Shown here one piece after another: positions 8,641 through 27,266 of a stretch of 32,000 nt of DNA. Under the pieces are notes generated by a model. The model did no database searches, was not told the DNA's origin, and worked only from the letters and a program-made list of their open reading frames with translations. Made by a program: the position numbers and the translations under genes. Within the stretch, counting starts at the first letter, position 1; every line of letters begins with the position of its first letter. Origin of the DNA: Lachnospiraceae bacterium. GTDB taxonomy: Bacteria > Bacillota > Clostridia > Lachnospirales > Lachnospiraceae. The stretch covers positions 3,028-35,027 of the forward strand of contig JAGACB010000139.1 of NCBI GenBank assembly GCA_017614345.1, read 5' to 3'.

Positions 8641-8882
8641 CGAAAACGTGTGGAATAGGTAAATTTGGAGAAAATGTCAATATTCATATTTTATGATTAT
8701 GTTCCATTTTCAAGAATTTTCCAAAATCAGCCGATCGGGGAAATAAATTAAAAAATCTGAGAGTGTACCGAGGATCGGCAAAAATCGGTGATCTTTACGG
8801 AATTGGTGAGAATATTTTTATAGATAGTACTATACATTTAGCGCCAATGCCGTTGATACGAATTAAGGAGAGAAATATCAAA

Positions 8883-9971: not shown

Positions 9972-9977
9972 TGCAGC

Positions 9978-11171: not shown

Positions 11172-12447
11172 ACACTGCAAACGGACCATGATCCTTGCAA
11201 CCGGTCTTTGTACCGTGTTCCTCGGCGGCTGCAGCCTGCTTTCCTCCGGAACGGAAGAACAGCTGGAGGCCAGAGAACAGGATCTGTATCTGAAGGCTCT
11301 TGATGAGGATCATTCCGGGAATGCTTCCCTTTCCGTAGCGGAGGTGTCCAGAGGTCCCTTCACTCAGAAGCTTTCCTTCGAAGCAACAGCCATTTTCCCC
11401 ATTAATGAATCCGTCAGTGTGGCGGGAGATGCGGAGGATGCTCTTGCAAACCTGGAGGCCGGTTCTCCGGAGGCAGCGGATTATGAGTCCATCCGGGACG
11501 GTAAACTTCAGAAGGTTGTGGTTCAGGAGATCCTGCTCCCGGATTATGCCAGCTACGTGGAGGCGGGAACACCGCTATTTTCCTATACTCTGGCAGCGGA
11601 GTCCGATGAAGTGGCTCTGACAGCGGCAAGAATGGAGCTGGAGCGGGCGAAAACCAATTATGCGGATTATGTACAGAGCAGCAACGAGCAGTTTGTGAGA
11701 ACTCAGGAACGCATTGCCAAGATGGAAGGCGGCTTTGCCCGTACCAAGGAAGAACTGCAGTATCAGCAGTCAGTGATCTCTTATCAGGAAGAGGTGGCAA
11801 AACGGGAAAAGAAGATCTCGGATCTGGAAAAGAATCTGGAAAATATCCAGAACGACCGGGTCTGCATTGTCAAAGCCCCCATCTCCGGTCAGGTCAGCTC
11901 CCTGCGGATCCCGGATCCCGGAAAGGAACTGGCGGTAGGTGATTCAGTCATGATCATCAATTCCCTCGAGGATATCCTTCTTCGTGTGGATGATAAAAAC
12001 GGCGGCCTTCGTGTGAATCAGAGAGTGAAGGTCTATGCCGGTGAAATCGGTAAATCCGATTCCATGGACGGAACCGTGGTCAGTGCCATCAGCTCCGTAT
12101 CCATGGATATGAAGCAGTCTCTCGGCGAATACTCTTATATCAGACTTGACGGCGATACCTCATCCATTACCCAGAGCGCCATTGATGCACTGGGGAACTG
12201 GTGGAGCAGAGGAAACGGTCAGAGCTTTTCCGTGGTCTCGGATTATATTGAGATCAGCGATGCGCTTCTGGTCGATTCCAGAGCAGTGGTCTTTGACCAG
12301 GGACGTCCTTATGTCATGATCGCGGAAGACGGAAAGACAAGAAGAATGTTCTTCTCCTCCGGCGGAAACAATTCCACCGACTACTGGGTCCTTGACGGAC
12401 TGGAGGAAGGAACGGAAGTGGTCCTGAATCCCGCTGGTAAGCAATAG
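11155..12447 (+). CDS. HlyD/MacA-family periplasmic-adaptor lipoprotein, paralogue 3
   Basis: The preferred start gives MSRINKHCKRTMILATGLCTVFLGGCS (lipobox LGGC) at 11155, preceded by GGAGGAAGGAG and overlapping the paralogue 2 stop by 17 nt. It has a coiled-coil region (MELERAKTNYADYVQ...EEVAKREKKISDLEKNLENIQ), APISGQVSSLRI and the C-terminal YWVLDGLEEGTEVVLNP. The exact start is uncertain: ATGs at 11146 and 11155, and one further downstream at 11188 (MILATG...), are all possible. Confidence 0.8.
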   Translation: MSRINKHCKRTMILATGLCTVFLGGCSLLSSGTEEQLEAREQDLYLKALDEDHSGNASLSVAEVSRGPFTQKLSFEATAIFPINESVSVAGDAEDALANLEAGSPEAADYESIRDGKLQKVVVQEILLPDYASYVEAGTPLFSYTLAAESDEVALTAARMELERAKTNYADYVQSSNEQFVRTQERIAKMEGGFARTKEELQYQQSVISYQEEVAKREKKISDLEKNLENIQNDRVCIVKAPISGQVSSLRIPDPGKELAVGDSVMIINSLEDILLRVDDKNGGLRVNQRVKVYAGEIGKSDSMDGTVVSAISSVSMDMKQSLGEYSYIRLDGDTSSITQSAIDALGNWWSRGNGQSFSVVSDYIEISDALLVDSRAVVFDQGRPYVMIAEDGKTRRMFFSSGGNNSTDYWVLDGLEEGTEVVLNPAGKQ

Positions 12448-12465
12448 AGATAACCGGAGGTTGCT

Positions 12466-15300
12466 ATGTTAAGATTTATGATCCAAAAGCTGACCCATAA
12501 AAAGTGGATGGTGCTCAGTCTTTTGATTGGAAATATCCTGCTGATCGCAGTGGCGGCGTCGATCCCCATGTACAAGAACGCCTCCCTTCAGCGGATGCTG
12601 ACGGATGAATTTCAGACCTATTTCGAGGAAAATAACGTAAACCCCGGCATCATGGTCTTAAGTGCATCCATTCAGAAGCAGTACGGAAAGAGTGCGTTTC
12701 TGAAAATGAGAAACTACGAGAGTGAGATCCTGAAGGAACTGGGACTGACTCCCGCGGAAAAATACCCCGTGACGGAATATCTGTTCTTGAACCCCTCCGG
12801 AGCGGAGCCATTGTTCAAAAGAAGTGACGAAAACAGCAGCAGAAAGCTTCAGTTTTCTGCTCTGACGGATCTTGAGGACCATATCGAGATCGTATCCGGC
12901 CGGATGTATTCCGATCAGATCACGGAGGACGGCTTTATCGAGGTCATTGTATCCACCTCCTGCTTTTCCGATCAGGCCCTTCTGGTGGGAGATGAGTTCT
13001 CCTTCAAGGGCATCAAGGATGCAGACGGAAAGCCCAGAAAGGTCCGTGTGGTAGGCGTGTTCCAGGGCATTACGGATGAGGACGGCTACTGGGTCAAGTC
13101 CTCGGACTATTACCATGACGATATCTTTGTTCCGGTGAGCCTCTTTGACTCACAGTTCCTGGATCAGAGCGGAAAGCTCTATATTTCCGGCTACTTCTAT
13201 GTCCGTTATGATACTCAGAAGGTGGCCTTTGAGAAATCTTCCTTCATTTCCGAGAAGCTTTCCCGGATCGTGGAGGACAATGATGATCTTTACACCTCCA
13301 TCCAGGCAGATGCCCTTCAGGAGATCCTGGCTACCTATCTTGATAAGCAGGACCGGATCAATACAACGCTGATGATCCTTCAGGTTCCCGTTCTGGTGCT
13401 GATCTGTGCATTCCTGTTCATGATCTCCGACCAGATGCTCCAGATGGAGAGAAATGAGATCTCCCAGCTGAAGAGCCGTGGCGCAGGCCGTCTTCAGATC
13501 CTTCTGATCTACCTGCTCCAGTCACTGCTTCTTGCAGGCGTGAGTCTGGTGATCGGTATCCCTGTAGGTATGGTATTCTGCCGGGCGATCGGTTCCTCCA
13601 ATGCGTTCCTGGAGTTCGTCAGCCGGAGAAATCTTCGGATCTCCGTAGACCGGGAGGTATGGATCTACTGTGCGGCAGCATTCTTCGTTTCCGTCTGCAT
13701 GACGGTACTTCCGGTCATCGGCTACAGTAAGGTGACCATTGTCAGCTTAAAGCGCAGCAAGAGCCGCAGCGGCAAGCCCATCTGGCAGAAGTTCTTCCTG
13801 GACTTCCTGATCCTGGGTGTGTCCCTGTACGGATATTATTCCTTCTACAGACAGAGGGATGACCTGTATGCGCAGGTGCTCTCCGGAGCTTCCCTGGATC
13901 CCCTGCTGTTCTTAAGCTCTTCCCTGTTCATTCTGGGAGCCGGAATGGTGGCAGTGCGTCTGCAGCCCATCCTTGTAAAGCTTCTTTACAAGCTTCTGGG
14001 GCGGATCCTTCCTCCTTCGGAATTTGCCTCCTTCCTTCAGACCATCCGGACCGGACGGAGACAGTATTTCATCATGATCTTCCTGGTGCTGACCGTGGCA
14101 CTCGGTATCTTTAATGCAACGGTGGCCCGTACCATCATTTCCAATGCGGAGCGGAACATTGCCTACGTGAACGGTGTGGATGTGGTGCTTCAGGAACACT
14201 GGAATGACAACTCGGCCCAGATCCGTGCAGGTATGGCGGAAAAACTTGCCTATACGGAGCCGGACTTCGGACGTTATGAATCCACGGAAGGCATTGATAA
14301 ACTGACCAAGGTTTATCACTATGAGAAGGTCTACAGCCCCAGCATCAAGGGCATGGGCGTGGATGCCAACTCCATCAAGGTATACGGTATCAACACCAAG
14401 GAATTCGGTGAGATGACGGATCTGGAGAATGGTCTTCTGCCTTATCAGTACCGTCAGTATCTGAACGTACTGGCAACCAATCAGAATGCAGTGCTGGTTT
14501 CCTCTGCCTTCCGCGATACGGTGGGCTTAAAGCTGGGAGACAAGCTGACATTAACGGGAGGAATTGACGGAAAGACCTCCACCTCCTTTGAGATCTACGG
14601 CTTTGTGGATTACTGGCCGGGATATGTTCCCACGGATATCAGCGTTTCCGAGAACGGAACGGTGAATGTAACTCCGAACCTCATGGTCATTGCCAACTTC
14701 GGTGCTCTGGAAGAGCGCTGGGGCAAGGTGCCTTACGAGGTATGGATCAAGCTGAAGGACGGCGTCTCCGCAGACTCCGTTTATGACACCATTGTGGAGC
14801 AGAAGATCGACCTGGACAGCTTTACGGATTCCACCAGGGAAATGAGAAATGTCCGCAAGGACACTCTGTATCAGGGAACCAACGGTATCCTGACCATGAG
14901 CTTTATCATTATCCTGATCCTCTGTGTGGTAGGTTTCCTGATCTACTGGATCCTGTCCATCCGCTCGAGAGAGCTTCTCTTCGGTGTGTTCCGTGCCATG
15001 GGTATGGCGAAGAACGAGATCCTGAGAATGCTGATCGGAGAACAGCTCTTCTCCAGTGTACCCGCCATTTTGCTGGGTGTGGGCGTGGGCTGGATCGCAT
15101 CAAGACTCTTTGTTCCGCTGATCCAGATCGCTTATGCATCCAAGAATCAGATCCTGCCCCTTAAGATCCTGACAGAGAACAGTGACATGATGAAGCTCAT
15201 CGTGATCATTGCCCTGATGTTCCTGATCTGCATGATCATTCTGGCGAGAACGGTATTTTCCATGAAGATCTCTCAGGCTCTGAAGCTTGGAGAAGATTAA
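12466..15300 (+). CDS. Fused double-FtsX (MacB-type) ABC transporter permease, about 10 TM with two large extracytoplasmic domains
   Basis: 944 aa, with GGAGG 7 nt upstream. There are two FtsX-type modules: RNEISQLKSRGAGRLQILLIYLLQSLLLAGVSLVIGIPVG, and SRELLFGVFRAMGMAKNEILRMLIGEQLFSSVPAILLGVGVG. Each is preceded by a TM helix and a hydrophilic domain of about 250-260 aa. Confidence 0.88.
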   Translation: MLRFMIQKLTHKKWMVLSLLIGNILLIAVAASIPMYKNASLQRMLTDEFQTYFEENNVNPGIMVLSASIQKQYGKSAFLKMRNYESEILKELGLTPAEKYPVTEYLFLNPSGAEPLFKRSDENSSRKLQFSALTDLEDHIEIVSGRMYSDQITEDGFIEVIVSTSCFSDQALLVGDEFSFKGIKDADGKPRKVRVVGVFQGITDEDGYWVKSSDYYHDDIFVPVSLFDSQFLDQSGKLYISGYFYVRYDTQKVAFEKSSFISEKLSRIVEDNDDLYTSIQADALQEILATYLDKQDRINTTLMILQVPVLVLICAFLFMISDQMLQMERNEISQLKSRGAGRLQILLIYLLQSLLLAGVSLVIGIPVGMVFCRAIGSSNAFLEFVSRRNLRISVDREVWIYCAAAFFVSVCMTVLPVIGYSKVTIVSLKRSKSRSGKPIWQKFFLDFLILGVSLYGYYSFYRQRDDLYAQVLSGASLDPLLFLSSSLFILGAGMVAVRLQPILVKLLYKLLGRILPPSEFASFLQTIRTGRRQYFIMIFLVLTVALGIFNATVARTIISNAERNIAYVNGVDVVLQEHWNDNSAQIRAGMAEKLAYTEPDFGRYESTEGIDKLTKVYHYEKVYSPSIKGMGVDANSIKVYGINTKEFGEMTDLENGLLPYQYRQYLNVLATNQNAVLVSSAFRDTVGLKLGDKLTLTGGIDGKTSTSFEIYGFVDYWPGYVPTDISVSENGTVNVTPNLMVIANFGALEERWGKVPYEVWIKLKDGVSADSVYDTIVEQKIDLDSFTDSTREMRNVRKDTLYQGTNGILTMSFIIILILCVVGFLIYWILSIRSRELLFGVFRAMGMAKNEILRMLIGEQLFSSVPAILLGVGVGWIASRLFVPLIQIAYASKNQILPLKILTENSDMMKLIVIIALMFLICMIILARTVFSMKISQALKLGED

Positions 15301-15365
15301 GTGACAAGAGAAAGGAGAATGGTCCGGTTTTGTGTTATACGTAGCCGGGTCATGTGTGAGATAAT

Positions 15366-16052
15366 ATGAATATGATCACAGCAAAGGATCTCTGTCGCGA
15401 TTTCAAGCTCGGAGACGGAACCACCTTCCGTGTACTGAACAACATTCAGATCGAGATCCCGGAAAAGAAACTTGCGATCCTCAGGGGCCCTTCCGGTTCC
15501 GGAAAGACAACCCTGATGAATATCATCGGTGCGCTGGATATGCCTACGGCGGGGACCGTTACCTTTGACGGCAAGAACATCACCGCCATGAGCGAAGCAA
15601 AGCGCGAACAGTTAAGACGTCGGGATATCGGATTCATTTTCCAGTCCGTATCCCTGATCCCCATTATGACAGCCTATGAAAATGTGGAATTCGCCCTGAG
15701 AATGGGCGGCGGAAAAATGAGCAAGGCGGAGACTAAGGCCCGTGTCACCGAGTGCCTTTCCATGGTAGGCCTGGCGGGGCGTATGAACCATATGCCCCAG
15801 GAGCTCTCCGGCGGTGAGCAGCAGCGTGTGGCCATAGCCCGTGCCATTGCCCACCGGCCCAAGGTGATCTTTGCGGATGAGCCTACGGCGGAGCTGGACT
15901 CCCTGACCGCCAAGGCCGTGGTACAGATCTTTAAGAAGCTTGTGGAACAGGAGCAGGTCACCATCATCATGACCACCCACGACGTGGGACTCATGGATAT
16001 GGCGGATGTGGTATATATGCTTGAGGACGGAGAGATAGTGAAAAATGGCTGA
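15366..16052 (+). CDS. ABC transporter ATP-binding protein (MacB/LolD-type NBD), subunit 1
   Basis: Walker [11 protein letters not shown]-loop FIFQS, signature [14 protein letters not shown], Walker [10 protein letters not shown]-loop TTHD. 228 aa. The RBS is weak; the start could be 15366 or 15372. Confidence 0.92.
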
Positions 16053-16986
16053 TGAAATGATTTTAGCGGACAATCTTGTCAAGATCTACAAGACCGAGGA
16101 CCTGGAGGTCCTGGCGCTGCAGGGACTGGATCTGACCGTGCAGAAGGGTGAACTGATGGCCATCATCGGTAACTCCGGCTCCGGTAAATCCACCTTCCTC
16201 AACATGCTGGGCGGTCTGGACCGTCCCAGTGCCGGAAAACTCTACGTAGACGGCAAGAATCTGTTCACCATGACCGAAAAGGAACTGGTGGAATATAAAA
16301 AGAGAACCGTTGGTTTTGTGTGGCAGAACAATGCCAGAAACCTGCTGCCCTACTTAAGCGCCCTGGAAAATGTCATGACCCCCATGATGTTCTCCGGCGT
16401 GAAGAAGCGGAAAGAGCGTGCCTTGGAACTGCTGGATCTGGTGGGTTTATCTCACCGGAAGAACAGCCGCCTAAACCAGCTCTCCGGCGGTGAGCAGCAG
16501 CGTGTGGCCATAGCCATTGCCCTGGCCAATAATCCGAAGCTCCTTCTGGCGGATGAGCCCACAGGTTCTGTAGACCGAAAGAGCGCAGACTATATCCTGG
16601 ATGTATTCCGGAGACTGAACCGGGAAACGGATCTGACCATTGTGATCGTAACCCATGACGTAAATCTCTCCAAGAACGTAAGCCGTGTGGTATCCATCCG
16701 CGACGGACGTACCAGCAGCGAGATGATCATGAAGAAGGATTATGCGGAGGCCACGGATCTGGATCTTTCCAAGATCTGGAAGACAGAGGAAGAGACCCAG
16801 GAAGAGTTCGCCATCGTGGATAAGGTGGGCCGGATCCAGATCCCCAGAGAGCATCTGGATCAGTTGGGTATCAAGCACGGAACCGACCGTATGCGGGTGG
16901 AATTCGACGGAGAGCGGATCATCCTCCGTTCCTCGGAAAGTCCGGCACATACCTCCGGTGCTACCCAGAATCTGGATGATGAGTGA
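16045..16986 (+). CDS. ABC transporter ATP-binding protein, subunit 2, with a C-terminal extension of about 90 aa containing an AbrB/SpoVT-like motif
   Basis: Walker [10 protein letters not shown], signature [14 protein letters not shown], Walker B LLADEPT, H-loop THD. It overlaps subunit 1 by 8 nt (ATGGCTGATGA). The extension includes [39 protein letters not shown]. Confidence 0.9.
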
Positions 16987-17138: not shown

Positions 17139-17366
17139 GTGGAAAGAAAAGATGCCATCAGCATGGCGGAACAGATCAGAAAGACTCTGCCCGAGGAAGA
17201 AAGGGTTTACATGGATGATCTGATCAAAGCATTAAAGAGTAAAAAGGGTCCGGAGGATCCGGATGATTATGCCGATCTTCTCCTTGGCTACGCCGAGGAA
17301 TATGAGGATGTCAATGAGCAACTCTGCTGCACACTGGCGGATTACCTCGCCGAGGAATTCGGCTGA
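17139..17366 (+). CDS. Small acidic hypothetical protein (75 aa)
   Basis: GTG start with AAAGGAG 9 nt upstream (an ATG at 17163 is an alternative). The sequence is very Asp/Glu-rich (…PEDPDDYADLLLGYAEEYEDVNEQLCCTLADYLAEEFG). A strong terminator follows immediately. I recognise no family. Confidence 0.5.
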   Translation: MERKDAISMAEQIRKTLPEEERVYMDDLIKALKSKKGPEDPDDYADLLLGYAEEYEDVNEQLCCTLADYLAEEFG

Positions 17367-17396
17367 ATTCTTAAATCAAAAGACAGTGTCAGGTAT

Positions 17397-17433
17397 ATCG
17401 TCTGCAGGTTTTGCCTGCAGACGATGCTTTTTC
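17397..17433 (+). terminator. Rho-independent terminator
   Basis: A 12-bp stem atcgtctgcagg / cctgcagacgat has a ttttg loop and is followed by gcttttt. Confidence 0.85.
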
Positions 17434-17444
17434 TGCCGAAAGGA

Positions 17445-17473
17445 TTGACGGAATCAAGGATTTTGAGTACAAT
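17445..17473 (+). promoter_or_regulatory. Sigma-70-type promoter for the MetRS-like / Cys-rich gene pair
   Basis: TTGACG (17445-17450), a 17-nt spacer and TACAAT (17468-17473), about 85 nt upstream of the ATG at 17557. Confidence 0.65.
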
Positions 17474-17556
17474 ACAAAGATACGAAAACAGTCCGGTTTG
17501 TTATAAGAGACCGGTCTGTTACGGAGAAAAGGACAGATATTTTTGGAGGAGCCAAG

Positions 17557-19539
17557 ATGTACGATAAGAGAATCAGACCTGACGAAAAGCCGGTATTTCC
17601 GAAGCGTTGTGTGATCACGGGCGGTATGCCTTACGGAAATAAGGAGCTTCACTTCGGACATGTGGGAGGGATGTTTGTTCATGCCGATATCTTTGCCAGG
17701 TTTATGCGTGACAGGATCGGAAAGGAGAACGTGATCTTTGTATCCGGAACCGACTGCTATGGTTCTCCGGCTCTTGAAAGCTACCGGAAGCTGAAGGAAA
17801 GCGGTTACACCGGTACCATTGAGGATTATGTCCGCTCCAATCATGAAAAGCAGAAGGTGACGCTGGAACGCTATCGCATCAGCCCCAACCTTTTCGGTGC
17901 TTCGGCGTTAGATGAGGCAGGAAAGTTCCACAAGGATACCTCTGCTAAGATCTTCAAGTCTCTGTATGAGAAGGGGGCTTTGGAGAAGCTTTCCACCCCT
18001 CAGTTTTTCGATGAGAAACTGGGCGTTTTCTTAAACGGACGTCAGGTAGTGGGCAGATGTCCCATTGAAGGCTGTACCAGTGAGAAGGCCTATGCAGACG
18101 AGTGTTCCCTGGGCCATCAGTACATGCCCAGTGATCTGATCGATCCCGTCAGCGTCCTTTCCGGCGAGAAGCCTGTGTTTGTGGATGTTACCAACTGGTA
18201 TTACAAGCTGGAAGATGATATTGACTATTTAAAGGAGTGCATTCAGGATCTTCGTGCGAATTCCAATCGCCGGAAGTATGAGATGGTCATCATCGATGAA
18301 TTCCTGAACAAGCCCTCCGTACATATCCCCAAGAAGTTTCTGGAAGGTATTGATCAGGATGCACTTCTGGCAAGCTTTCCCGAGCATGAACTGATCGATG
18401 AAGAGAAGCGGAAAGCCCTTCTCTGCGTCTTCAAGACCCTGGATGACCGTGATGCGGCCAGAAAGGCTCTGGATGCGGCAGGTGTTCATTATACCGCAGG
18501 CAAGACTCTGGTTCCCTTCCGTCTTACCGGTAACTGTGAGTGGGGCGTTCCCGTTCCGGATACCGAAGGAGAGAAGGATCTTACCTTCTGGGTTTGGCCC
18601 GAATCCCTTTGGGCTCCCATTTCCTTTACCAGAACCTATCTTGCTTCCCAGGGAAAGGATGAAGACGAATGGCAGAAGTGGTGGAACGATGAGGATTCCA
18701 TGGTATATCAGTTCATCGGCGAGGATAATATCTATTTCTACTCCATCGCGGAAATGGGCATTTTCCATGCCCTCGGAAATGTAAAGGCACCTCATATCAT
18801 TCCCAATCGCCACATCCTGTTCATGGATACCAAGGCCAGCAGCTCCTCTGCCATCAAGCCGCCTATGGCTGACGAACTTCTGGACCATTATTCCGTAGAT
18901 CAGCTCAGAATGCACTTCATGAGTCTGGGCCTTTCCAATAAGAGCACCGGCTTTAAGCCTCAGGTCTATATGCCGGAGGAGGAGAGAGAAGGCGTGGATA
19001 TGGTTGTGAAGGAAGGAAACCTTCTGACCAATGTCTACAACCGTCTGATCCGTTCCTGTTTCTATTCGACCCAGAACTCTTTTGACGGCATCCTTCCCGA
19101 GGGTGAGGTATCAGAAAAGATCAAAGCCCTTGCAGAGAAGAATGTATCCGACTATGAGAGACACATGTACAATCATGATTTCCACAGGATCTCCTATACT
19201 CTTGATGAGTACATCCGTGAGGTCAACAAGTACTGGGCTGCCACCAGCCGTGAAGCGGATAAGAACAATGATAAGGAGCTGATGAAGCAGCTTCTGGTGG
19301 ATACCTGGTATTCCTGCAAGGTCATGGCCGTTCTGTTCCATCCCATTGCACCTGACGGGTGCGAGATGTTCCGGGAGTATCTGAACCTGGATGAGAAGCT
19401 GTGGAGCTGGGATTACATCTTAGAGCCCCTTACTGCATATATTCCGGATCTGAAGGCTCATAAGTGTAAGTTCCTTGAGCCGAAGGTGGATTTCTTCAAG
19501 AAACCGGAGTGGCAGTTTGAGAGCAGCACAAAGGAATGA
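17557..19539 (+). CDS. Class I aminoacyl-tRNA-synthetase family protein, MetRS-like (divergent; KMSKS position reads KASSS)
   Basis: GGAGGA 6 nt upstream. The layout is MetRS-like. The HIGH region reads ITGGMPYGNKELHFGHVGG (E. coli MetRS has ALPYANGSIHLGH). A zinc-knuckle region reads GRCPIEGCTSEKAYADECSLGHQYMPSDLIDPVSVLSGEKPVF (E. coli has [37 protein letters not shown]). Also present are WGVPVP, FWVWPESLWAPISF, YQFIGEDNIYFYS and DQLRMHF. Where KMSKS is expected the sequence is FMDTKASSSSAIKP. There is no C-terminal tRNA-binding (EMAP/Trbp111-like) domain. Confidence 0.8.
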   Translation: MYDKRIRPDEKPVFPKRCVITGGMPYGNKELHFGHVGGMFVHADIFARFMRDRIGKENVIFVSGTDCYGSPALESYRKLKESGYTGTIEDYVRSNHEKQKVTLERYRISPNLFGASALDEAGKFHKDTSAKIFKSLYEKGALEKLSTPQFFDEKLGVFLNGRQVVGRCPIEGCTSEKAYADECSLGHQYMPSDLIDPVSVLSGEKPVFVDVTNWYYKLEDDIDYLKECIQDLRANSNRRKYEMVIIDEFLNKPSVHIPKKFLEGIDQDALLASFPEHELIDEEKRKALLCVFKTLDDRDAARKALDAAGVHYTAGKTLVPFRLTGNCEWGVPVPDTEGEKDLTFWVWPESLWAPISFTRTYLASQGKDEDEWQKWWNDEDSMVYQFIGEDNIYFYSIAEMGIFHALGNVKAPHIIPNRHILFMDTKASSSSAIKPPMADELLDHYSVDQLRMHFMSLGLSNKSTGFKPQVYMPEEEREGVDMVVKEGNLLTNVYNRLIRSCFYSTQNSFDGILPEGEVSEKIKALAEKNVSDYERHMYNHDFHRISYTLDEYIREVNKYWAATSREADKNNDKELMKQLLVDTWYSCKVMAVLFHPIAPDGCEMFREYLNLDEKLWSWDYILEPLTAYIPDLKAHKCKFLEPKVDFFKKPEWQFESSTKE

Positions 19540-19576
19540 TCCGTGAAACGCACTTTTTGAGAGGAGTCTGAAGACG

Positions 19577-20314
19577 ATGGAAGAAAAGCTTTATACGATA
19601 CCGGTGAATGACGCCTTCGATCAGAAGTGTGAATGTCCGGTCTGCATGATGCGAAAGAAACTTGAGGACGATGCCATTGCCTATACCTTAGGCCCCAGCT
19701 ACATGGAGGATGATGTCCGGATGGAAACGGACAAGCTCGGTTTTTGTTCCCGCCATCTGGATGTACTGTATCATCAGAGCAACCAGCTGGGACTGGCCAT
19801 TATCCTTTCAACCCACTTTGCAAAGATCAACGCCAATGTAGAGAAGCTTTCCGGCGCGGCAACTCAGCCGGTCCGTGCGAAGTTATTTGCCAAGAAGGAT
19901 TCTCTCCCCGGCAATCCCCTGACGGATTATCTCGACAAACTGAACGGCTCCTGCTTTATCTGCAACCGTGTGGACGGCACCTTTGGCCGGTACATTAATA
20001 CCATCTTTTACCTGTACCGGACGGAAGAGGATTTCCGAAAGAAGTTTGCCGCTTCGAACGGTTTCTGTACAGCACATTTAAGTCTCCTTTTACGTGAAGC
20101 AGGTTCCCATCTTCACGGTGAGACCCTTACTTCCTTCTGTAAGACCGGTACTTCTTTGTATCTGGAGAACATGAAGCGTGTTCAGGGTGACCTGGAGTGG
20201 TTTGTCGATAAGTTTGATTACCGCAATACCAACGAACCCTGGAAGAATTCCAAGGATGCGATTCCCCGTGCGATCACCAAGGTGGGCAGCATTGTATATG
20301 AAGATGATAAATGA
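19577..20314 (+). CDS. Cys-rich hypothetical protein with two tandem CxxC...FC(S/T)xH modules (putative double zinc site)
   Basis: 245 aa, with GAGGAG 10 nt upstream and starting 37 nt after the MetRS-like stop. Module 1 is CECPVC, 33 aa, FCSRHL. Module 2 is CFIC, 34 aa, FCTAHL. I recall similar clostridial proteins annotated only as a domain of unknown function, but this is unverified. Confidence 0.7.
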   Translation: MEEKLYTIPVNDAFDQKCECPVCMMRKKLEDDAIAYTLGPSYMEDDVRMETDKLGFCSRHLDVLYHQSNQLGLAIILSTHFAKINANVEKLSGAATQPVRAKLFAKKDSLPGNPLTDYLDKLNGSCFICNRVDGTFGRYINTIFYLYRTEEDFRKKFAASNGFCTAHLSLLLREAGSHLHGETLTSFCKTGTSLYLENMKRVQGDLEWFVDKFDYRNTNEPWKNSKDAIPRAITKVGSIVYEDDK

Positions 20315-20325
20315 TTTTTCAATGA

Positions 20326-20369
20326 TTCCGGTACCTCATATGAAAGCGGTACCGGAATCTTCGTTTCTT
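20326..20369 (+). terminator. Rho-independent terminator after the Cys-rich gene
   Basis: A 10-bp stem ttccggtacc / ggtaccggaa has a 12-nt loop and is followed by the T-rich tcttcgtttctt. Confidence 0.65.
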
Positions 20370-20635: not shown

Positions 20636-21007
20636 ATGATGAGATTTTTTATTTGTGAGCATTGCGGAAACATTGTGGAGATGGTGAAGGATTCCGGCGT
20701 GAACGTTGTCTGCTGCGGTCAGAAGATGACGGAGCTGATTCCCGGAACATCCGACGGTGCTGTGGAAAAGCATGTACCGGTTGCAACGGTGGACGGAAAT
20801 AAGGTCAGCGTTGCTGTAGGCTCGGTTGATCATCCTATGCTGGATGTTCACTTTATCGAGTGGATCGCAATCGAGACTTCTGCCGGAGCTCAGAGAAAGT
20901 TTTTGAAGCCCGGAGAGGCACCGAAGGCAGAGTTTGTTCTTGCTGAGGGTGAGAGCTTTGTTGCGGCTTATGCTTATTGCAATCTTCACGGTCTGTGGAA
21001 GGCTTGA
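20636..21007 (+). CDS. dfx: Desulfoferrodoxin (class I / 2Fe superoxide reductase)
   Basis: 123 aa, with GAGGAGG upstream. The N-terminal desulforedoxin-like site is CEHCGN...CCG. The C-terminal SOR centre ligand contexts are EKHVP, HPM, HFIEW and YCNLHGLW. Confidence 0.9.
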   Translation: MMRFFICEHCGNIVEMVKDSGVNVVCCGQKMTELIPGTSDGAVEKHVPVATVDGNKVSVAVGSVDHPMLDVHFIEWIAIETSAGAQRKFLKPGEAPKAEFVLAEGESFVAAYAYCNLHGLWKA

Positions 21008-21021
21008 GACAGTTCTTTCGG

Positions 21022-21052
21022 AGCGGCCACTCTTCGGGGTGGCCGCTTTTCG
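21022..21052 (+). terminator. Rho-independent terminator after dfx
   Basis: A 9-bp GC-rich stem agcggccac / gtggccgct has an 8-nt loop and is followed by ttttcg. Confidence 0.75.
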
Positions 21053-21092
21053 TCTGTTACAGATTTTTCAAACTTTGGACATGATTTTTCGG

Positions 21093-21121
21093 TTGCAAAT
21101 CAAAGTCTGATATGCTACAAT
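21093..21121 (+). promoter_or_regulatory. Strong sigma-70-type promoter for the butyryl-CoA operon
   Basis: TTGCAA (21093-21098), a 17-nt spacer and TACAAT (21116-21121) preceded by TGc (extended -10). This gives a leader of about 110 nt before thl. Confidence 0.7.
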
Positions 21122-21237
21122 AGTGCATAAGACTGATAAAAAAATAACAATCTTTCAAGAGAAAGGATTTTTCACCGCCGGAAAGCGGTGAAAAGGGTTA
21201 TATTTATCACGAATAATTTATACGGAGGAAGTTTTTT

Positions 21238-22419
21238 ATGGCTAAGAAAATCGTATTAGCTGGCGCATGCCGTACCGCTATCGGTACCATGGGCGGATCA
21301 CTCAGCACAACCCCTGCGGTAGAGCTGGGACGGATCGTTATCCAGGAAGCAGTAAAGAGAGCAGGGATCAAACCCGAGGATGTTGACCATGTATACATGG
21401 GTTGTGTAATCCAGGCAGGTCTCGGACAGAACGTTGCTCGTCAGGCTTCCATCAAGGCAGGTCTTCCCATTGAGACTACTGCAGTAACTGTAAACGTTGT
21501 CTGCGGTTCCGGTCTGAACAGCGTAAATATGGCAGCTCAGATGATCGCAAACGGAGATGCTGATATTGTGATCGCCGGCGGTATGGAGAATATGTCTATG
21601 GCTCCTTATGCCATGATGAACGGCCGTTACGGATACAGAATGAACAACGGTACTCTTGTAGATACCATGGTAAATGATGCTCTTTGGGATGCATTCAACC
21701 AGTATCACATGGGTATCACAGCAGAGAATGTAGCAGAGAAGTATGGTCTTACCCGTACCGAGCTGGATGAGTTCTCCGCATGGTCTCAGCAGAAGGCTGT
21801 AGCTGCCATCGAGGCAGGACGCTTCAAGGATGAGATCGTTCCCGTTGAAGTTAAGAAGAAGAAGGAAACCGTTGTATTTGATACAGATGAAGGCCCTCGT
21901 CCCGGAACTACCGCGGAGAGCATTGCAAAGCTTCGTCCCGCATTCAAGCCCGACGGTATCGTAACCGCTGCAAACTCTTCCGGTATCAACGACGGTGCTG
22001 CAGCAGTTGTTGTTATGAGTGCTGAGAAGGCTGAAGAGCTGGGTGTTAAGCCTATGGCTACCTGGGTTGCAGGCGCTCTCGGCGGCGTAGATCCTTCCAT
22101 CATGGGTATCGGTCCTGTTGCTGCCGTTAACAAGGTATTCAAGAAGACAGGCCTGACCATGGATGATATCGATCTGGTTGAGGCAAATGAAGCATTTGCT
22201 GCTCAGTCCCTCGGTGTTGACCGTGAGCTTCATTTCGATCATGACAAGCTCAACGTAAACGGCGGTGCCATCGCTCTGGGTCACCCCGTAGGTGCTTCCG
22301 GTTGCCGTATCCTGGTTACTCTGCTTCATGAGATGCAGAAGAGAGATGCAAAGACCGGTCTTGCTACCCTTTGCATCGGCGGCGGTATGGGCTGCGCAAC
22401 CATCGTAAAGAGAGATTGA
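21238..22419 (+). CDS. thl: Acetyl-CoA C-acetyltransferase (thiolase)
   Basis: 393 aa, with GGAGGA upstream. Thiolase hallmarks are present: [12 protein letters not shown] (active-site Cys), [28 protein letters not shown] and CIGGGMG. Confidence 0.95.
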
Positions 22420-22512
22420 TTTTACAAATCAGCAGGCATAGATCGATGAAACTTCGGTCTATGCCCGCTTTGCGTATGTTATTTGTATTATATTTTTCGG
22501 AGGAAACCAGTT

Positions 22513-23301
22513 ATGGAATTTGTTTTATATGAGCAGAAGGGCCAGTACGCAGTGATCACCATCAGCCGCGAGAAGGCTCTGAACGCACTGAACAGCCAGG
22601 TACTCGATGAACTGAATGCAGTTCTCGATCAGGTAGATCTGGCAGAGGTTCGTTGTCTGATCCTGACCGGTGCAGGTCCCAAGTCCTTTGTTGCAGGTGC
22701 TGATATCGGTGAGATGAGCACACTGACCAAGGCTGAGGGCGAAGCATTCGGTAAGAAGGGAAATGATGTATTCCGCAAGCTTGAGACATTCCCCATTCCT
22801 GTGATCGCTGCAGTGAACGGTTTTGCACTTGGCGGCGGCTGCGAGATCGCCATGAGCTGCGATATCCGCATCTGCTCCGAGAACGCTCTGTTCGGACAGC
22901 CCGAGGTTGGTCTCGGTATCACACCCGGATTCGGCGGAACTCAGCGCTTAGCTCGTCTTGTAGGTCCCGGAATGGCTAAGCAGCTGATCTACACTGCGAG
23001 AAACATCAAGGCTGACGAGGCATATCGTATCGGTCTTGTAAATGCAGTTTATCCTGCTGAGGAGCTTATGGGTGCTGCAGAGAAGATGGCTGCAGGAATC
23101 GCAAAGAATGCTCCCATTGCTGTCAGAAACTGCAAGAAGGCCATCAACGAGGGTCTTGATGCTGCAACCATGGATGAGGCTATTGTGATCGAAGAGAAGC
23201 TCTTCGGTGACTGCTTCGAGACAGAGGATCAGCGTTACGGTATGGAATTCTTCCTTGACAAGAACAAGGAGAAGGTAAAGGAACCGTTCAAGAATAAGTA
23301 A
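22513..23301 (+). CDS. crt: Short-chain enoyl-CoA hydratase (crotonase)
   Basis: Starts MEFVLYEQKGQYAVITISREKALNALN at 22513, with GGAGGA at 22498-22503 (the track ORF starts earlier, at 22483). Crotonase-fold motifs are present: FVAGADI, AAVNGFALGGGCEIAMSCDIR and FGQPEVGLGITPGFGGTQRL. Confidence 0.93.
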   Translation: MEFVLYEQKGQYAVITISREKALNALNSQVLDELNAVLDQVDLAEVRCLILTGAGPKSFVAGADIGEMSTLTKAEGEAFGKKGNDVFRKLETFPIPVIAAVNGFALGGGCEIAMSCDIRICSENALFGQPEVGLGITPGFGGTQRLARLVGPGMAKQLIYTARNIKADEAYRIGLVNAVYPAEELMGAAEKMAAGIAKNAPIAVRNCKKAINEGLDAATMDEAIVIEEKLFGDCFETEDQRYGMEFFLDKNKEKVKEPFKNK

Positions 23302-23340
23302 AGAATAATAATTCTAATATAATTTCAGGAGGTACACAAC

Positions 23341-24174
23341 ATGAAGGTTGGTATTATCGGTGCCGGTACCATGGGTTCCGGAATCGCTCAGGCATTTGCC
23401 ATGACCGATGGTTTTGAGGTATGTCTTTGCGACATCAAGACCGAGTATGCAGAAGGCGGTCTTGCAAAGATCCAGAAGAACATGAATTTCCTTGTAAGCA
23501 AGGAGAAGATCACTCAGGAGAAGGCTGATGAGATCCTTTCCCGCATCACCACAGGTCTTAACGACATCTGTGCAGATTGCGATCTTGTCGTAGAAGTTGC
23601 TCTTGAGAAGATGGAGATCAAGCAGCAGATCTTTGCTCAGCTGATGCAGATCTGCAGAAAGGATTGCATCTTTGCTTCCAATACATCTTCCCTTTCCATC
23701 ACAAAGATGGGCGAGGGTCTTGACAGACCGCTCGTTGGTATGCATTTCTTTAACCCTGCAGATCGTATGAAGCTGGTTGAGGTGATCGCAGGCGAGAATA
23801 CTCCCGCTGAGCTGGTTGCTAAGATCAAGGAGATCGCGGAGCAAATCGGAAAGACACCCGTTGAAGTTAAGGAAGCTCCCGGATTCGTTGTTAACCGTAT
23901 CCTGATCCCTATGATCAACGAAGCGATCAACGTACTTGATGCAGGTACTGCTTCTGCAGAGGATATCGATACCGCTATGAAGCTCGGTGCTTCTCATCCC
24001 ATGGGACCCCTTGCACTCGGTGACCTGGTTGGTCTTGATATCTGCCTTGCCATCATGGAAGTTATCTACAATGAGACCGGCGATGCTAAGTACAAGCCCG
24101 CACCCCTCTTGGAGAAACTCGTAGCTGAGAAGAAGCTCGGAAGAAAGACCGGAGAAGGTATCTTTAAGTATTAA
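23341..24174 (+). CDS. hbd: 3-hydroxybutyryl-CoA dehydrogenase
   Basis: Starts MKVGIIGAGTMGSGIAQ (Rossmann GxGxxG). Also contains FASNTSSLSIT, GMHFFNPA, PGFVVNRILIPMINEA and MGPLALGDLVGLD. AGGAGG lies upstream. Confidence 0.95.
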   Translation: MKVGIIGAGTMGSGIAQAFAMTDGFEVCLCDIKTEYAEGGLAKIQKNMNFLVSKEKITQEKADEILSRITTGLNDICADCDLVVEVALEKMEIKQQIFAQLMQICRKDCIFASNTSSLSITKMGEGLDRPLVGMHFFNPADRMKLVEVIAGENTPAELVAKIKEIAEQIGKTPVEVKEAPGFVVNRILIPMINEAINVLDAGTASAEDIDTAMKLGASHPMGPLALGDLVGLDICLAIMEVIYNETGDAKYKPAPLLEKLVAEKKLGRKTGEGIFKY

Positions 24175-24197
24175 TATAAATGGAGGATCAATCGATC

Positions 24198-25364
24198 ATG
24201 GATTTCACGTTAAGTAAAGAACATGAGATGTGCAGAGAACTGTTCAGATCCTTTGCACAGAACGAAGTTAAGCCTCTGGCACAGGAAGTTGACGAGACAG
24301 AGAACTTCCCCAGAGAAACAGTTGAGAAGATGGGTAAGCTCGGATTCCTCGGAATCCCGATCCCGAAGGAGTACGGCGGACAGGGCGCAGACATCCTGAC
24401 CTATGTTATGTGTGTTGAGGAACTGTCCAAGGTTTGCGGTACTACAGGCGTTATCGTTTCCGCACACACCTCTCTTTGCGCTGACCCGATCCTGACTTTC
24501 GGTACAGAAGAGCAGAAGCAGAAGTATCTGCCTGATCTTGCTACAGGCCGTAAGCTCGGTGCATTCGGTCTTACCGAGCCCGGTGCAGGTACCGACGCTC
24601 AGGGACAGCAGACAAAGGCTGTTCTCGACGGTGAAGAGTGGGTACTGAACGGTTCCAAGTGCTTCATCACAAACGGTAAGGAAGCAGATGTTTATATCAT
24701 CATCGCTGTTACCGGTCTGATCGAGAAGAGAGGCAAGATGCAGAAAGAGATCTCCTCCTTCATCGTTGAAAAGGGAACTCCCGGATTCTCCTTCGGTACT
24801 AAGGAGAAGAAGATGGGTATCCGCGGTTCTTCCACCTATGAGCTGATCTTCCAGGATTGCCGTATCCCGAAGGATGCGCTTCTCGGTAAGAAGGGCGAAG
24901 GCTTCAAGATCGCTATGCACACCCTTGACGGCGGCCGTATCGGTATCGCTGCTCAGGCACTCGGCTTAGCAGAGGGCGCTCTTGAGAATACCATCAGCTA
25001 CACCCAGGAAAGAAAGCAGTTTGGTCGTTCCATTTCTGCATTCCAGAATACACAGTTCCAGCTTGCCGATATGGCAACCAAGGCTGAGGCAGCTAAGCTT
25101 CTTGTTTACAAGGCTGCTAAGACCAAGGATCAGTATCAGCTTGACCACAAGACCTCTTACAGTGTAGAAGCTGCTATGGCTAAGCTTTACGCTGCAGAAG
25201 CTGCTATGGAGATCACAACCAAGGCAGTTCAGCTGCACGGCGGCTACGGCTACACCAGAGAGTATGATGTAGAGCGTATGATGCGTGATGCAAAGATCAC
25301 TGAGATCTATGAAGGAACCAGTGAAGTTCAGAGAATGGTAATTTCTGCCAATATTCTGAAATAA
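24198..25364 (+). CDS. bcd: Butyryl-CoA dehydrogenase (short-chain acyl-CoA dehydrogenase, Bcd)
   Basis: Starts MDFTLSKEHEM at 24198, with GGAGGA at 24182-24187 (the track start at 24180 lies within the RBS). Acyl-CoA dehydrogenase motifs are present: GAFGLTEPGAGTDA, FITNG, QLHGGYGYTREYDVERMMRDAKITEIYEGTSEVQR. Confidence 0.95.
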   Translation: MDFTLSKEHEMCRELFRSFAQNEVKPLAQEVDETENFPRETVEKMGKLGFLGIPIPKEYGGQGADILTYVMCVEELSKVCGTTGVIVSAHTSLCADPILTFGTEEQKQKYLPDLATGRKLGAFGLTEPGAGTDAQGQQTKAVLDGEEWVLNGSKCFITNGKEADVYIIIAVTGLIEKRGKMQKEISSFIVEKGTPGFSFGTKEKKMGIRGSSTYELIFQDCRIPKDALLGKKGEGFKIAMHTLDGGRIGIAAQALGLAEGALENTISYTQERKQFGRSISAFQNTQFQLADMATKAEAAKLLVYKAAKTKDQYQLDHKTSYSVEAAMAKLYAAEAAMEITTKAVQLHGGYGYTREYDVERMMRDAKITEIYEGTSEVQRMVISANILK

Positions 25365-25383
25365 TGAAAGGAGCGAATAAACA

Positions 25384-26175
25384 GTGAAGATCATAGTATG
25401 TATTAAGCAGGTTCCCGATACAAAGGGCGGTGTGAAGTTCAATCCCGACGGTACCTTAAATCGTGCAGCCATGCTTACGATCATGAACCCGGATGACAAG
25501 GCCGGTTTGGAAGCAGCACTCAGATTAAAGGATCAGTACGGCGCAGAAGTAACCGTACTTACCATGGGTCTTCCCAAGGCTACCGATGTACTTCTTGAAG
25601 CAATTGCAATGGGCGCAGACAAGGGCGTTCTGGTTACCGACCGTGTACTCGGCGGTGCTGATACCTGGGCTACCTCCACAACAATTGCAGGCGCAATCAG
25701 AAACATGGAATATGACCTGATCATTACAGGTCGTCAGGCGATCGACGGTGATACCGCTCAGGTTGGTCCTCAGATCTCCGAGCATCTGGGCATTCCGGTA
25801 ATCTCCTATGCACAGAAGATCGAAGTAGAAGGCGATTCCGTGATCGTTGAGCGTCAGTACGATGACAGATATCATGTGGTTAAGGCTCAGATGCCTTGCC
25901 TGATCACAGCTCTCGGCGAGCTGAATGCTCCCAGATATATGACTCCCGGCGGAATCTTCAATGCCGTTAAGAATCAGGCTGACCTGATCACTGTTTGGGG
26001 ACGTGCAGACCTTAAGGATGTTGATGACAATGACCTGGGTCTGAAGGGTTCTCCCACACAGATCGCAAAGGCTTCTGATAAGGTTCGTAAGGGTGCCGGT
26101 GAGAAGGTTACTCTCGATCCCGCAGAGTCCGTTGACTATATCATTGGTAAGCTGAAAGAAAAGCATGTAATCTAA
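25384..26175 (+). CDS. etfB: Electron transfer flavoprotein, beta subunit
   Basis: GTG start giving MKIIVCIKQVPDT, the typical EtfB N-terminus, with AGGAG 9 nt upstream. Also contains DLIITGRQAIDGDTAQVGPQISEHLGIP. Confidence 0.93.
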   Translation: MKIIVCIKQVPDTKGGVKFNPDGTLNRAAMLTIMNPDDKAGLEAALRLKDQYGAEVTVLTMGLPKATDVLLEAIAMGADKGVLVTDRVLGGADTWATSTTIAGAIRNMEYDLIITGRQAIDGDTAQVGPQISEHLGIPVISYAQKIEVEGDSVIVERQYDDRYHVVKAQMPCLITALGELNAPRYMTPGGIFNAVKNQADLITVWGRADLKDVDDNDLGLKGSPTQIAKASDKVRKGAGEKVTLDPAESVDYIIGKLKEKHVI

Positions 26176-26201
26176 TCGTAAAGGAAAAGTGGTGAATAAA
26201 A

Positions 26202-27266
26202 ATGGCAAAAATGACAATCGAAGAGATGGAAAGCTACAAGGGCGTTTATGTCTTTGCTCAGCAGGTAGACAATAAAGTCAGCTCGATCGCTTTCGAATTG
26301 ATCGGTAAGGGCAAGGATCTTGCCGCTGACCTTGGAACAGATGTAACTGCAGTTCTGATCGGCTCCGATGTTAAGGGCCTTGCTGATGAGCTTGCAGAGT
26401 ACGGCGCTGACAGAGTGATCGTAGTTGACGATCCTGAATTAAAGGAATACAGAACAGAGCCTTATACTCATGCCCTGGCTTCCGTGATCAATGAATTCAA
26501 GCCTGAGATCATGCTGATCGGTGCAACAGCCATCGGCCGTGACTTAGGTCCCCGTGTATCCGCAAGAGTAAAGACCGGTCTGACTGCAGACTGTACTTCT
26601 CTTGACATCGGTGATTTCCCCATTGCTCCCATCCCCGGAAAGGAGCAGAAGCACAATCAGCTTCTCATGACACGTCCTGCATTCGGCGGCAACACCATTG
26701 CTACCATTGCATGCCCTGACAACCGTCCTCAGATGGCAACCGTTCGTCCCGGCGTTATGCAGAAGAAGGCTCGTGTAGCCGGTGCTAAGGCAGAGGTTGT
26801 TGAATTCAATCCCGGATTCACACCCAACAATATGTACGTTGAGATCCTGAAGGTAGTTAAGGCTGTTTCCGATACCGTTGATATCATGGATGCAAAGATC
26901 CTGGTATCCGGCGGCCGTGGTGTAGGCAGCGCTGAGAACTTCAAGATCCTTGAAGACCTTGCTGCAGTTATCGGCGGAACCGTTTCCTGTTCCCGTGCCG
27001 TTGTAGATTCCGGCTGGAAGCCCAAGGATCTGCAGGTAGGACAGACCGGTAAGACCGTTCGTCCTCATGTATACTTCGCAATCGGTATCTCCGGTGCCAT
27101 CCAGCATCTGGCAGGTATGGAAGAGTCCGATATCATCATTGCGATCAACAAGGATGAGACAGCTCCCATCTTCGACGTAGCTGATTACGGTATCGTAGGC
27201 GACCTGAACAAGATCGTTCCTGCTCTGACCGAGGCTTTGAAGGCTGAGCTTGCAGCTAACGCATGA
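26202..27266 (+). CDS. etfA: Electron transfer flavoprotein, alpha subunit
   Basis: 354 aa. The FAD-binding C-terminal motifs are present: ILVSGGRGVGS, GQTGKTVRPHVYFAIGISGAIQHLAGM, IIAINKDETAPIF, ADYGIVGDL. Confidence 0.93.
   Translation: MAKMTIEEMESYKGVYVFAQQVDNKVSSIAFELIGKGKDLAADLGTDVTAVLIGSDVKGLADELAEYGADRVIVVDDPELKEYRTEPYTHALASVINEFKPEIMLIGATAIGRDLGPRVSARVKTGLTADCTSLDIGDFPIAPIPGKEQKHNQLLMTRPAFGGNTIATIACPDNRPQMATVRPGVMQKKARVAGAKAEVVEFNPGFTPNNMYVEILKVVKAVSDTVDIMDAKILVSGGRGVGSAENFKILEDLAAVIGGTVSCSRAVVDSGWKPKDLQVGQTGKTVRPHVYFAIGISGAIQHLAGMEESDIIIAINKDETAPIFDVADYGIVGDLNKIVPALTEALKAELAANA

Follow-up and report, generated by a model that had tools for sequence, protein, structure and literature searches.

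A clostridial family of MetRS-derived synthetases with glutamine-specifier T-box leaders as candidate tRNA-Gln enzymes

The subject of this report is a pair of genes in a 32,000-nucleotide stretch of a Lachnospiraceae bacterium genome (GenBank assembly GCA_017614345.1, contig JAGACB010000139.1, positions 3,028 to 35,027 of the forward strand; hereafter the window, in whose own numbering positions are given). Gene 1 (17557-19539) encodes a 660-aa class I synthetase-like protein derived from methionyl-tRNA synthetase (MetRS), a member of a clostridial family that reads K-A-S-S-S at the position of the KMSKS loop, and gene 2 (19577-20314) encodes a 245-aa, all-helical member of DUF6062 with two invariant CxxC...FCxxH sites; both genes, and all of the signals and motifs of the pair located below, are on the + strand. 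Based on the regulation of orthologous genes and on gene position, we consider it somewhat probable that gene 1 encodes a MetRS-derived synthetase acting on tRNA-Gln. The more specific proposal, that the family is a glutaminyl-tRNA synthetase (GlnRS) evolved from MetRS, is a tentative one. What is new here would be the functional assignment; databases already list the family itself, though with names that are generic or wrong, NCBI calling most members 'class I tRNA ligase family protein' and some databases calling members 'methionine--tRNA ligase'.

Neighbouring genes were surveyed in 82 orthologous loci (56-89% identity), taken with up to ~4 kb on each side (8 kb for L001 and L002) where the contig allowed, and the regulatory evidence comes from 83 upstream regions and that of Clostridium beijerinckii. 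Full-length matches to the Rfam T-box model (RF00230) in L001, L002, and L072 scored 127, 108, and 108 bits, among them the leaders of about 500 nt upstream of the MetRS-like gene in C. felsineum and Lachnospiraceae bacterium KM106-2 (127 and 108 bits). A hidden Markov model (HMM) of the leader placed a T-box upstream of the MetRS-like gene in 33 of 83 loci, and with C. beijerinckii added the number rose to 34 (about 40% of loci). In the C. beijerinckii T-box (L172, 5463-5875), Stem I is separated from the Stem III/antiterminator part by an insert of ~130 nt, which kept it under the Rfam gathering score. The L001 leader ends in a terminator whose U-run abuts the ATG, as in a classical transcriptional T-box. 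Tandem leader-HMM matches in L033 (about 3450-3875) and L066 (about 1525-1920), where an extra Stem I-like copy precedes a complete T-box, may reflect tandem or partly duplicated T-boxes.

Each of the 34 specifier loops has the sequence GAA-N-CA[A/G]-G before the lower helix, with CAA in 31 and CAG in three (L020, L078, and L079), and in the covariance-model alignments the CAA fell within the model's 8-nt specifier-loop segment with the expected purine next to it. The other two frames, ACA/GCA (Thr/Ala) and AAG/AGG (Lys/Arg), were rejected because each mixes two amino acids and would require orthologues to have switched between them; only the CAA/CAG frame specifies a single amino acid. The bias toward CAA fits the preference for a 3' A that TBDB statistics show where an amino acid has two codons, and specifiers for Gln rank among the rarest (PMC7778990). 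The variable base of the UGGN sequence was U in 20 leaders and C in 11. The discriminator typical of tRNA-Gln is G73, while that of tRNA-Met is A73, and both U and C can pair with G73, whereas C cannot pair with the A73 of tRNA-Met; a tRNA-Gln gene, sought for its discriminator base, was not present in any fetched locus. The Gln specifiers indicate that, in the genomes bearing a T-box, the MetRS-like gene is induced by uncharged tRNA-Gln.

These leaders bear on one alternative, that gene 1 is a genuine divergent MetRS, serving as a second or back-up enzyme or, in the manner of MetRS2 of Streptococcus pneumoniae and Bacillus anthracis, as an inhibitor-resistant one. In its favour, every sequence and structure match of gene 1 is to MetRS, and some members of the family carry the methionine ligase name in databases. 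However, the specifier is a Gln codon in every one of the 34 T-box leaders and AUG in none, with no AUG conserved beside the specifier loop, and CD3540, which encodes the canonical MetRS in C. difficile, has a T-box of its own (PMC11477304). Together with the residue replacements and the profile scores described below, this makes a divergent MetRS very unlikely.

The fold of gene 1 is that of MetRS. Its only Pfam match was to PF09334 (214 bits), a weak match to Anticodon_3 (18.3 bits) lying under the cut-off of 23.5, and its best solved relative was the Pyrococcus abyssi MetRS (1rqg; E = 5e-44), with HMMER aligning residues 17-249 and 323-620 of the query onto residues 3-223 and 229-529 of the chain. 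For the AlphaFold2 (AF2) model of gene 1 (predicted local distance difference test, pLDDT, 79.5; predicted template modelling score, pTM, 0.82), the top 50 Foldseek matches were all MetRS, full-length matches were obtained only to MetRS structures, and the TM score to 1rqg was 0.70. The Rossmann core, the connective peptide with its knuckle, and the helical anticodon domain are all present in the order found in MetRS. With PF09334 as the only domain and neither PF00749 nor PF03950 detected, gene 1 is not a member of the GlnRS family; were it to have GlnRS activity, it would be an analogue of that family and not a homologue.

Comparison of the motifs revealed both conserved and family-specific features, and all of the segments that a first-pass annotation, made from the letters of the window, had listed (HFGH, CPIEGC...ECSLGH, WGVPVP, FIGEDNIYF, DQLRMHF, and TKASSSSAIKP) were found in the translation. 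The HIGH motif H32-F-G-H35 (17650-17661) is invariant in the family and aligns to H21-H24 of Escherichia coli MetRS. The Cys3His knuckle C168-P-I-E-G-C173...C183-S-L-G-H187 (18058-18117), whose four ligand residues are invariant in the family, stands where canonical MetRS and the sister clade introduced below have CxxC...CxxC. At the position of the KMSKS loop is K426-A-S-S-S430 (18832-18846), invariant in 27 homologues; in relatives down to 38% identity the loop reads K-A-[SA]-S-S, and it aligns to KFSTS of P. abyssi MetRS. A family-specific insertion at about residues 245-322 (18289-18522), common to the family and its sister clade, appears as a gap in the HMMER alignment with MetRS and is predicted to form a folded alpha/beta module (block-mean pLDDT about 74-89 over residues 251-310); it had no match in Pfam. 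The first-pass annotation had put this insertion at ~80 aa, and the HMMER gap relative to P. abyssi MetRS bears it out at about 70-75 aa.

Mean column identity was 74% among 27 homologues (65-89% identity), in all of which HFGH, GTDCYGSP, C168/C173/C183/H187, most of FIGEDNIYFY (including Tyr395), and K-A-S-S-S were invariant, and from this conservation the family is judged to be under strong purifying selection. The matches listed included more than 100 homologues at 64-95% identity, the majority of them from Lachnospiraceae and Clostridium, relatives occur in at least 582 GTDB species, and the representatives of 50%-identity clusters reach down to 38% identity, as in Ruminococcus champanellensis. 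Orthologues are found in C. beijerinckii (P0452), C. collagenovorans, and Sarcina. Among the matches listed, the C. felsineum protein shares at most 82% identity with any relative, and no C. acetobutylicum orthologue is included; this patchy spread within Clostridium sensu stricto suggests an accessory or transferred gene. In one metagenome-assembled genome (MAG) of Herbinix (JAQSYO01; L073 and L075) the MetRS-like gene is present twice, and each copy is preceded by a separate Gln-specifier T-box.

To compare specificity residues, sequences of the gene 1 family, E. coli MetRS, 14 diverse canonical MetRS representatives, and the sister clade were aligned and numbered according to the E. coli enzyme. 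The MAFFT alignment of 32 sequences was gap-free across the pocket segment, in which A256-P257...Y260 correspond to S-L...P. The adenylation core is retained in the gene 1 family (Y15, H21, H24, D52, W253, D296, and K332), whereas the methionine pocket is replaced (L13 by M, A256-P257 by S-L, Y260 by P, H301 by Y, and F/W305 by E or Q) at positions that are kept in nearly all of the 15 canonical sequences. Similarly, the residues that recognise the CAU anticodon, N391, R395, and W461 (with P460), are invariant in 15/15 canonical sequences and none is present in the gene 1 family, in agreement with the first-pass annotation, which had reported the PW motif to be missing. Positions L13, Y260, and H301 are those changed in E. 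coli MetRS variants that were engineered for a different amino-acid specificity, and two such mutants (PDB 3h97 and 8bru) were among the Foldseek matches of the gene 1 model.

The replacement of all of these pocket and anticodon residues makes it unlikely that the gene 1 family is a housekeeping MetRS, and it argues against a divergent MetRS. The profile scores point the same way, with gene 1 lying under the NCBIfam MetRS equivalog cut-offs of both PRK00133 (230 vs 587 bits) and TIGR00398 (185 vs 336 bits). The earlier suggestion that gene 1 is not an ordinary metG thus held, as did the observation that it lacks the C-terminal tRNA-binding domain, the protein stopping soon after the anticodon-binding helices with PF09334 as its only Pfam domain. 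A canonical metG was not found in the window or in any fetched locus.

The KMSKS loop itself proved a poorer guide. Its first Lys is retained in gene 1 and its second is missing, from which the first-pass annotation had argued for recruitment to non-translational chemistry. The canonical enzymes do not support that argument, because P. abyssi MetRS reads KFSTS and 8/14 of the canonical representatives, with K-x-S-T-S or K-x-N-T-S, also have no second Lys; K-A-S-S-S by itself is therefore weak evidence. The occurrence of KxSTS-type loops in canonical archaeal-type representatives counts in favour of a divergent MetRS.

A sister clade from non-Firmicute MAGs (P0271, P0294, P0311, and P0327; locus L170), 29-35% identical to gene 1, shares with the family the insertion (~80-100 aa), the segments VWPESL.APISF and DNxYFY, and the loss of N391, R395, and W461, while retaining KMSKS, GTDDHG, and the CxxC/CxxC knuckle. 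Because this clade combines a remodelled pocket with KMSKS, the remodelling of the pocket would be older than the change to K-A-S-S-S. The sister clade may be a second orphan synthetase group, and the genomic context at L170 was uninformative. One of its members is named by NCBI only as 'class I tRNA ligase family protein'.

The second line of evidence is gene position, which also bears on a different alternative, the one preferred in the first-pass annotation: that gene 1 is an aminoacyl-tRNA synthetase (aaRS)-derived enzyme of non-translational chemistry with DUF6062 as its dedicated zinc-protein partner. The two genes are indeed close, 37 nt apart in the window and 21 nt in a 95%-identical relative (L169), and no terminator separates them; two Cys3His sites are invariant in DUF6062, and the KMSKS loop of gene 1 is altered. 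In contrast, DUF6062 was near the MetRS-like gene in 0/82 of the more distant orthologous loci, including L003-L008 at 85-89% identity, although the window as a positive control was recovered, and the MetRS-like gene was beside DUF6062 in 0/84 DUF6062 loci. The pair was seen only in the window and L169; a downstream gene that is not syntenic in related genomes is the outcome that the first-pass annotation had itself named as refuting its reading, and a dedicated partner is thus not supported. Clustering of flanking open reading frames (ORFs) in the 82 loci found no conserved neighbours of the MetRS-like gene, the sole recurring cluster consisting of generic ABC ATPases; the gene stands alone, as aaRS genes usually do. 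The full anticodon-binding domain, the lack of biosynthetic neighbours, and T-box control at 34 orthologous loci together indicate a tRNA-directed enzyme, and they speak against a non-translational role for gene 1, which we regard as quite unlikely.

The position upstream of DUF6062 is informative in another way. DUF6062 is widespread in Lachnospiraceae (1992 matches), and its neighbours in 84 loci were most often groES (60 loci), DUF2225 (43), and canonical glnS (PF00749 + PF03950 + PF20974; 26). Where at least 3.5 kb was available on both sides, glnS was nearby in 19 of 44 loci, in two different orientations. In the closest DUF6062 relative with a readable upstream flank (L167; P0125, 65% identity), canonical glnS lies directly upstream on the same strand, and in the next relative (L083; P0126, 63% identity) the order is glnS-miaA-DUF6062. 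In the window and in L169 the MetRS-like gene is directly upstream of DUF6062, where L167 has glnS; the MetRS-like gene thus occupies the glnS position in the window. In addition, a Clostridium MAG (L066) has canonical glnS on the same contig as a MetRS-like gene preceded by a Gln T-box, 1.8 kb away, which also counts in favour of a link to glutamine. The recurrent closeness of DUF6062 to glnS, and in the window to the MetRS-like gene, may have a functional basis or reflect inherited gene order. The order glnS - DUF2225 - DUF6062 - groES - groEL was conserved in Lachnospiraceae (L083-L168), and in many loci DUF2225 ends 6-60 nt before DUF6062, suggesting a DUF2225-DUF6062 operon next to the chaperonin genes.

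From these observations we propose that the family is a large clostridial one descended from archaeal-type MetRS. It has kept the adenylate-forming machinery and the full anticodon-binding domain, while every residue by which canonical MetRS selects methionine and reads CAU has been replaced. The enzyme would aminoacylate tRNA-Gln, most likely with glutamine, as a GlnRS analogue of MetRS ancestry; the alternative amino acid would be glutamate, feeding GatCAB. Speculatively, Gln is favoured over Glu because Met and Gln have side chains of comparable size, and because the hydrogen-bonding pocket residues Tyr301 and Glu/Gln305 are not basic and the carboxylate would disfavour Glu. In many clostridia, uncharged tRNA-Gln would accumulate and pair with the CAA/CAG specifier, stabilising the antiterminator and allowing transcription of the MetRS-like gene, and its coexistence with glnS and its T-box induction make a back-up, high-affinity, or inhibitor-resistant role plausible. 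In the lineage of the window, where the T-box is absent, gene 1 would be transcribed from its own promoter directly upstream of DUF6062, and the MetRS-like gene may have taken the place of glnS. DUF6062 would be co-transcribed with gene 1 here but is not a family-wide partner.

A further alternative accepts induction by uncharged tRNA-Gln and assigns the enzyme another role, such as modification of tRNA-Gln, supply of an aminoacyl-tRNA for non-ribosomal use, or ligation in a glutamine-sparing pathway. GluQRS provides a precedent for an aaRS paralogue that modifies a tRNA, and a canonical GlnRS coexists with the family in L066. T-boxes, moreover, also control biosynthetic and transport genes (PMC2494555). 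On the other hand, the whole aaRS architecture is under strong constraint, no pathway neighbours were found, and the positional swap with glnS before DUF6062 is more easily explained by an equivalent function, so we consider such a role unlikely, if less so than the alternatives discussed above.

Several points nonetheless weigh against assigning gene 1 to tRNA-Gln. The amino acid and the tRNA are derived solely from regulation and gene position, and T-boxes are found on non-synthetase genes such as those of biosynthesis and transport (PMC2494555). No T-box precedes the window copy or those of its closest relatives (L003-L012), and the proximity of glnS to DUF6062 could be inherited gene order with no functional meaning. 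The KMSKS loop lacks its second Lys, and its residues 419-433 are modelled by AF2 with low confidence. The remodelled pocket is also present in the KMSKS-bearing sister clade and, if that clade were true MetRS, the argument from the pocket would weaken. Finally, the family occurs alongside canonical GlnRS in at least one genome (L066) and, at the genus level, in Roseburia and Herbinix, so the MetRS-like enzyme is not required as the sole GlnRS there. The canonical glnS genes in the loci examined had no T-box.

Set against known systems, gene 1 resembles MetRS of the archaeal/eukaryote-like type (P. abyssi 1rqg; E. coli MetG) in its full-length fold, collinear domains, HIGH motif, zinc knuckle in the connective peptide, K-x-S-x-S loop, and helical anticodon domain. 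It differs in being only 18-24% identical, in its ~75-aa insertion, in having a Cys3His (C-x4-C...C-x3-H) rather than a CxxC/CxxC knuckle, in the replaced methionine-pocket and anticodon residues, and in the Gln rather than Met T-box of its orthologues. With GlnRS (PF00749 + PF03950 + PF20974) it has in common the predicted substrate tRNA, from the Gln T-box, and the position directly upstream of DUF6062 in related Lachnospiraceae, but no sequence or fold beyond the class I Rossmann core; the glnS genes examined have no T-box, and the two genes can coexist. Like MshC, GluQRS, the cyclodipeptide synthases, and the amino acid:carrier-protein ligases, gene 1 has a divergent aaRS-like catalytic core, but those enzymes have no anticodon-binding domain, lie in biosynthetic clusters, or both.

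Second synthetases induced through a T-box when their cognate tRNA is uncharged include thrZ and tyrZ of B. subtilis and the mupirocin-resistant ileS2 of the B. cereus group. These are paralogues within the same synthetase family, whereas the candidate back-up for Gln would derive from MetRS. Mupirocin-resistant tRNA ligases are among the T-box-associated ligase families (PMC2494555). A literature search returned no description of DUF6062; it also returned nothing on a link between MetRS-like proteins and tRNA-Gln or on a Gln T-box before MetRS-like genes, although two key T-box surveys (PMC2271356 and PMC2650889) were outside that search and a prior mention is possible.

Normally, one synthetase lineage serves each amino acid, with the class I and class II lysyl-tRNA synthetases and the two routes to Gln-tRNA and Asn-tRNA as textbook exceptions. 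A MetRS-derived tRNA-Gln enzyme, if confirmed, would be a new case beside these exceptions in the evolution of the genetic code and would provide a route to Gln-tRNA-Gln distinct both from canonical GlnRS and from the GluRS-GatCAB pathway. In it, a class Ia scaffold would have switched in nature not only its amino acid, with the roughly isosteric Gln in place of Met, but also its tRNA, and the enzyme would be widespread among Clostridia of the gut and rumen, where a Gln T-box would induce it. Such natural retargeting of a synthetase to a new amino acid and tRNA may be useful for the engineering of orthogonal pairs. The assignment would also account for a rare class of Gln-specifier T-boxes and would correct how a gene present in hundreds of Clostridia (gut, rumen, and solvent-producing ones, with the genetically tractable C. 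beijerinckii among them) is annotated. Should the enzyme do something else under the control of tRNA-Gln, it would still be a well-defined and directly testable orphan family.

In the window, the pair consists of two same-strand ORFs separated by 37 nt, with a promoter-like site on the 5' side and a terminator hairpin on the 3' side (17445-20369), as the first-pass annotation had described. The sigma-70-like promoter TTGACG-17-TACAAT (17445-17473) agrees with the consensus at 10/12 positions but is a consensus match only, promoter-like sites in the region not being enriched (3 observed vs 3.7 expected from shuffled sequence). The corresponding position in L169 reads TTGACG-17-TAATAT. The 5' leader of gene 1 contains a hairpin (17483-17523; -22.1 kcal/mol, z = -3.4) that belongs to no Rfam family and could be an mRNA-stabilising or regulatory element; L169 has a hairpin at the same place, but a different one. 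In the leader region of gene 1, no Rfam family reached its gathering score, none appeared even at E <= 1, and there was no T-box. The intergenic spacer (19540-19576), which includes the ribosome-binding site AGAGGAG at 19560-19566, forms no stable structure (z = +0.67), and folding revealed no hairpin or terminator between the genes. Downstream of gene 2, the terminator (20324-20369) is formed by a hairpin at 20324-20359 with a 12-bp stem (-22.4 kcal/mol, z = -3.9) and a U-rich tail, an interrupted U-run (UCUUCGUUUCUU); the consensus scanner overlooked it because the loop is too long. On the 5' side, the pair is isolated by the terminator of a small upstream ORF (17396-17426). Base composition, checked for signs of horizontal transfer, showed no anomaly across the gene pair.

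Gene 2 is a full-length member of Pfam DUF6062 (PF19538; 315.5 bits vs a cut-off of 27, model positions 1-241 of 243), although the usual neighbours of that family are DUF2225, groES/groEL, and glnS and not a MetRS-like gene. Residues C20, C23, C57, and H60 and residues C126, C129, C164, and H167 are invariant in 21 homologues, and C18 of the segment CECPVC is not conserved. The two CxxC/FCxxH modules described in the first-pass annotation as internal duplicates were thus upheld as two invariant sites; their Cys-to-Phe spacers are 32 and 33 residues instead of 33 and 34, and the repeat is barely detectable, being limited at the sequence level to the GFCxxHL segment (pairwise BLAST E = 0.004). 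These sites make two Cys3His metal sites plausible, and DUF6062 is probably a separate helical protein binding two zinc ions. The AF2 model is all-helical (pLDDT 82) and had no significant fold match in the PDB (best Foldseek E-value 0.62). Residues 9-76 of the DUF6062 profile, which cover the first CxxC...FCxxH module, gave a weak match (E = 0.003) to the UPF0371 protein DIP2346 (PDB 3bh1), which is solved and uncharacterised.

The genes around the pair are unrelated to it. The small ORF just 5' of the gene 1 promoter (17139-17366) encodes 75 aa, is acidic, has no Pfam match, and is the one with its own terminator at 17396-17426. Further upstream (8763-16986) is a MacB-type export system with an HlyD-like adaptor, a 944-aa FtsX/MacB permease, two ABC ATPases, and two Pfam-less proteins whose ORFs (9978-11171 and 11014-12447) overlap by 158 nt. 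On the other side of the pair (20636-27266), a desulfoferrodoxin gene is followed by thl-crt-hbd-bcd-etfBA, encoding thiolase, crotonase, 3-hydroxybutyryl-CoA dehydrogenase, butyryl-CoA dehydrogenase, EtfB, and EtfA; this complete butyryl-CoA operon indicates a butyrate-producing member of the Lachnospiraceae, and the source is probably the rumen because it is in rumen MAGs that gene 1 has its closest orthologues. Beyond it, at 27440-29638, is a 732-aa ORF with no match in Pfam.

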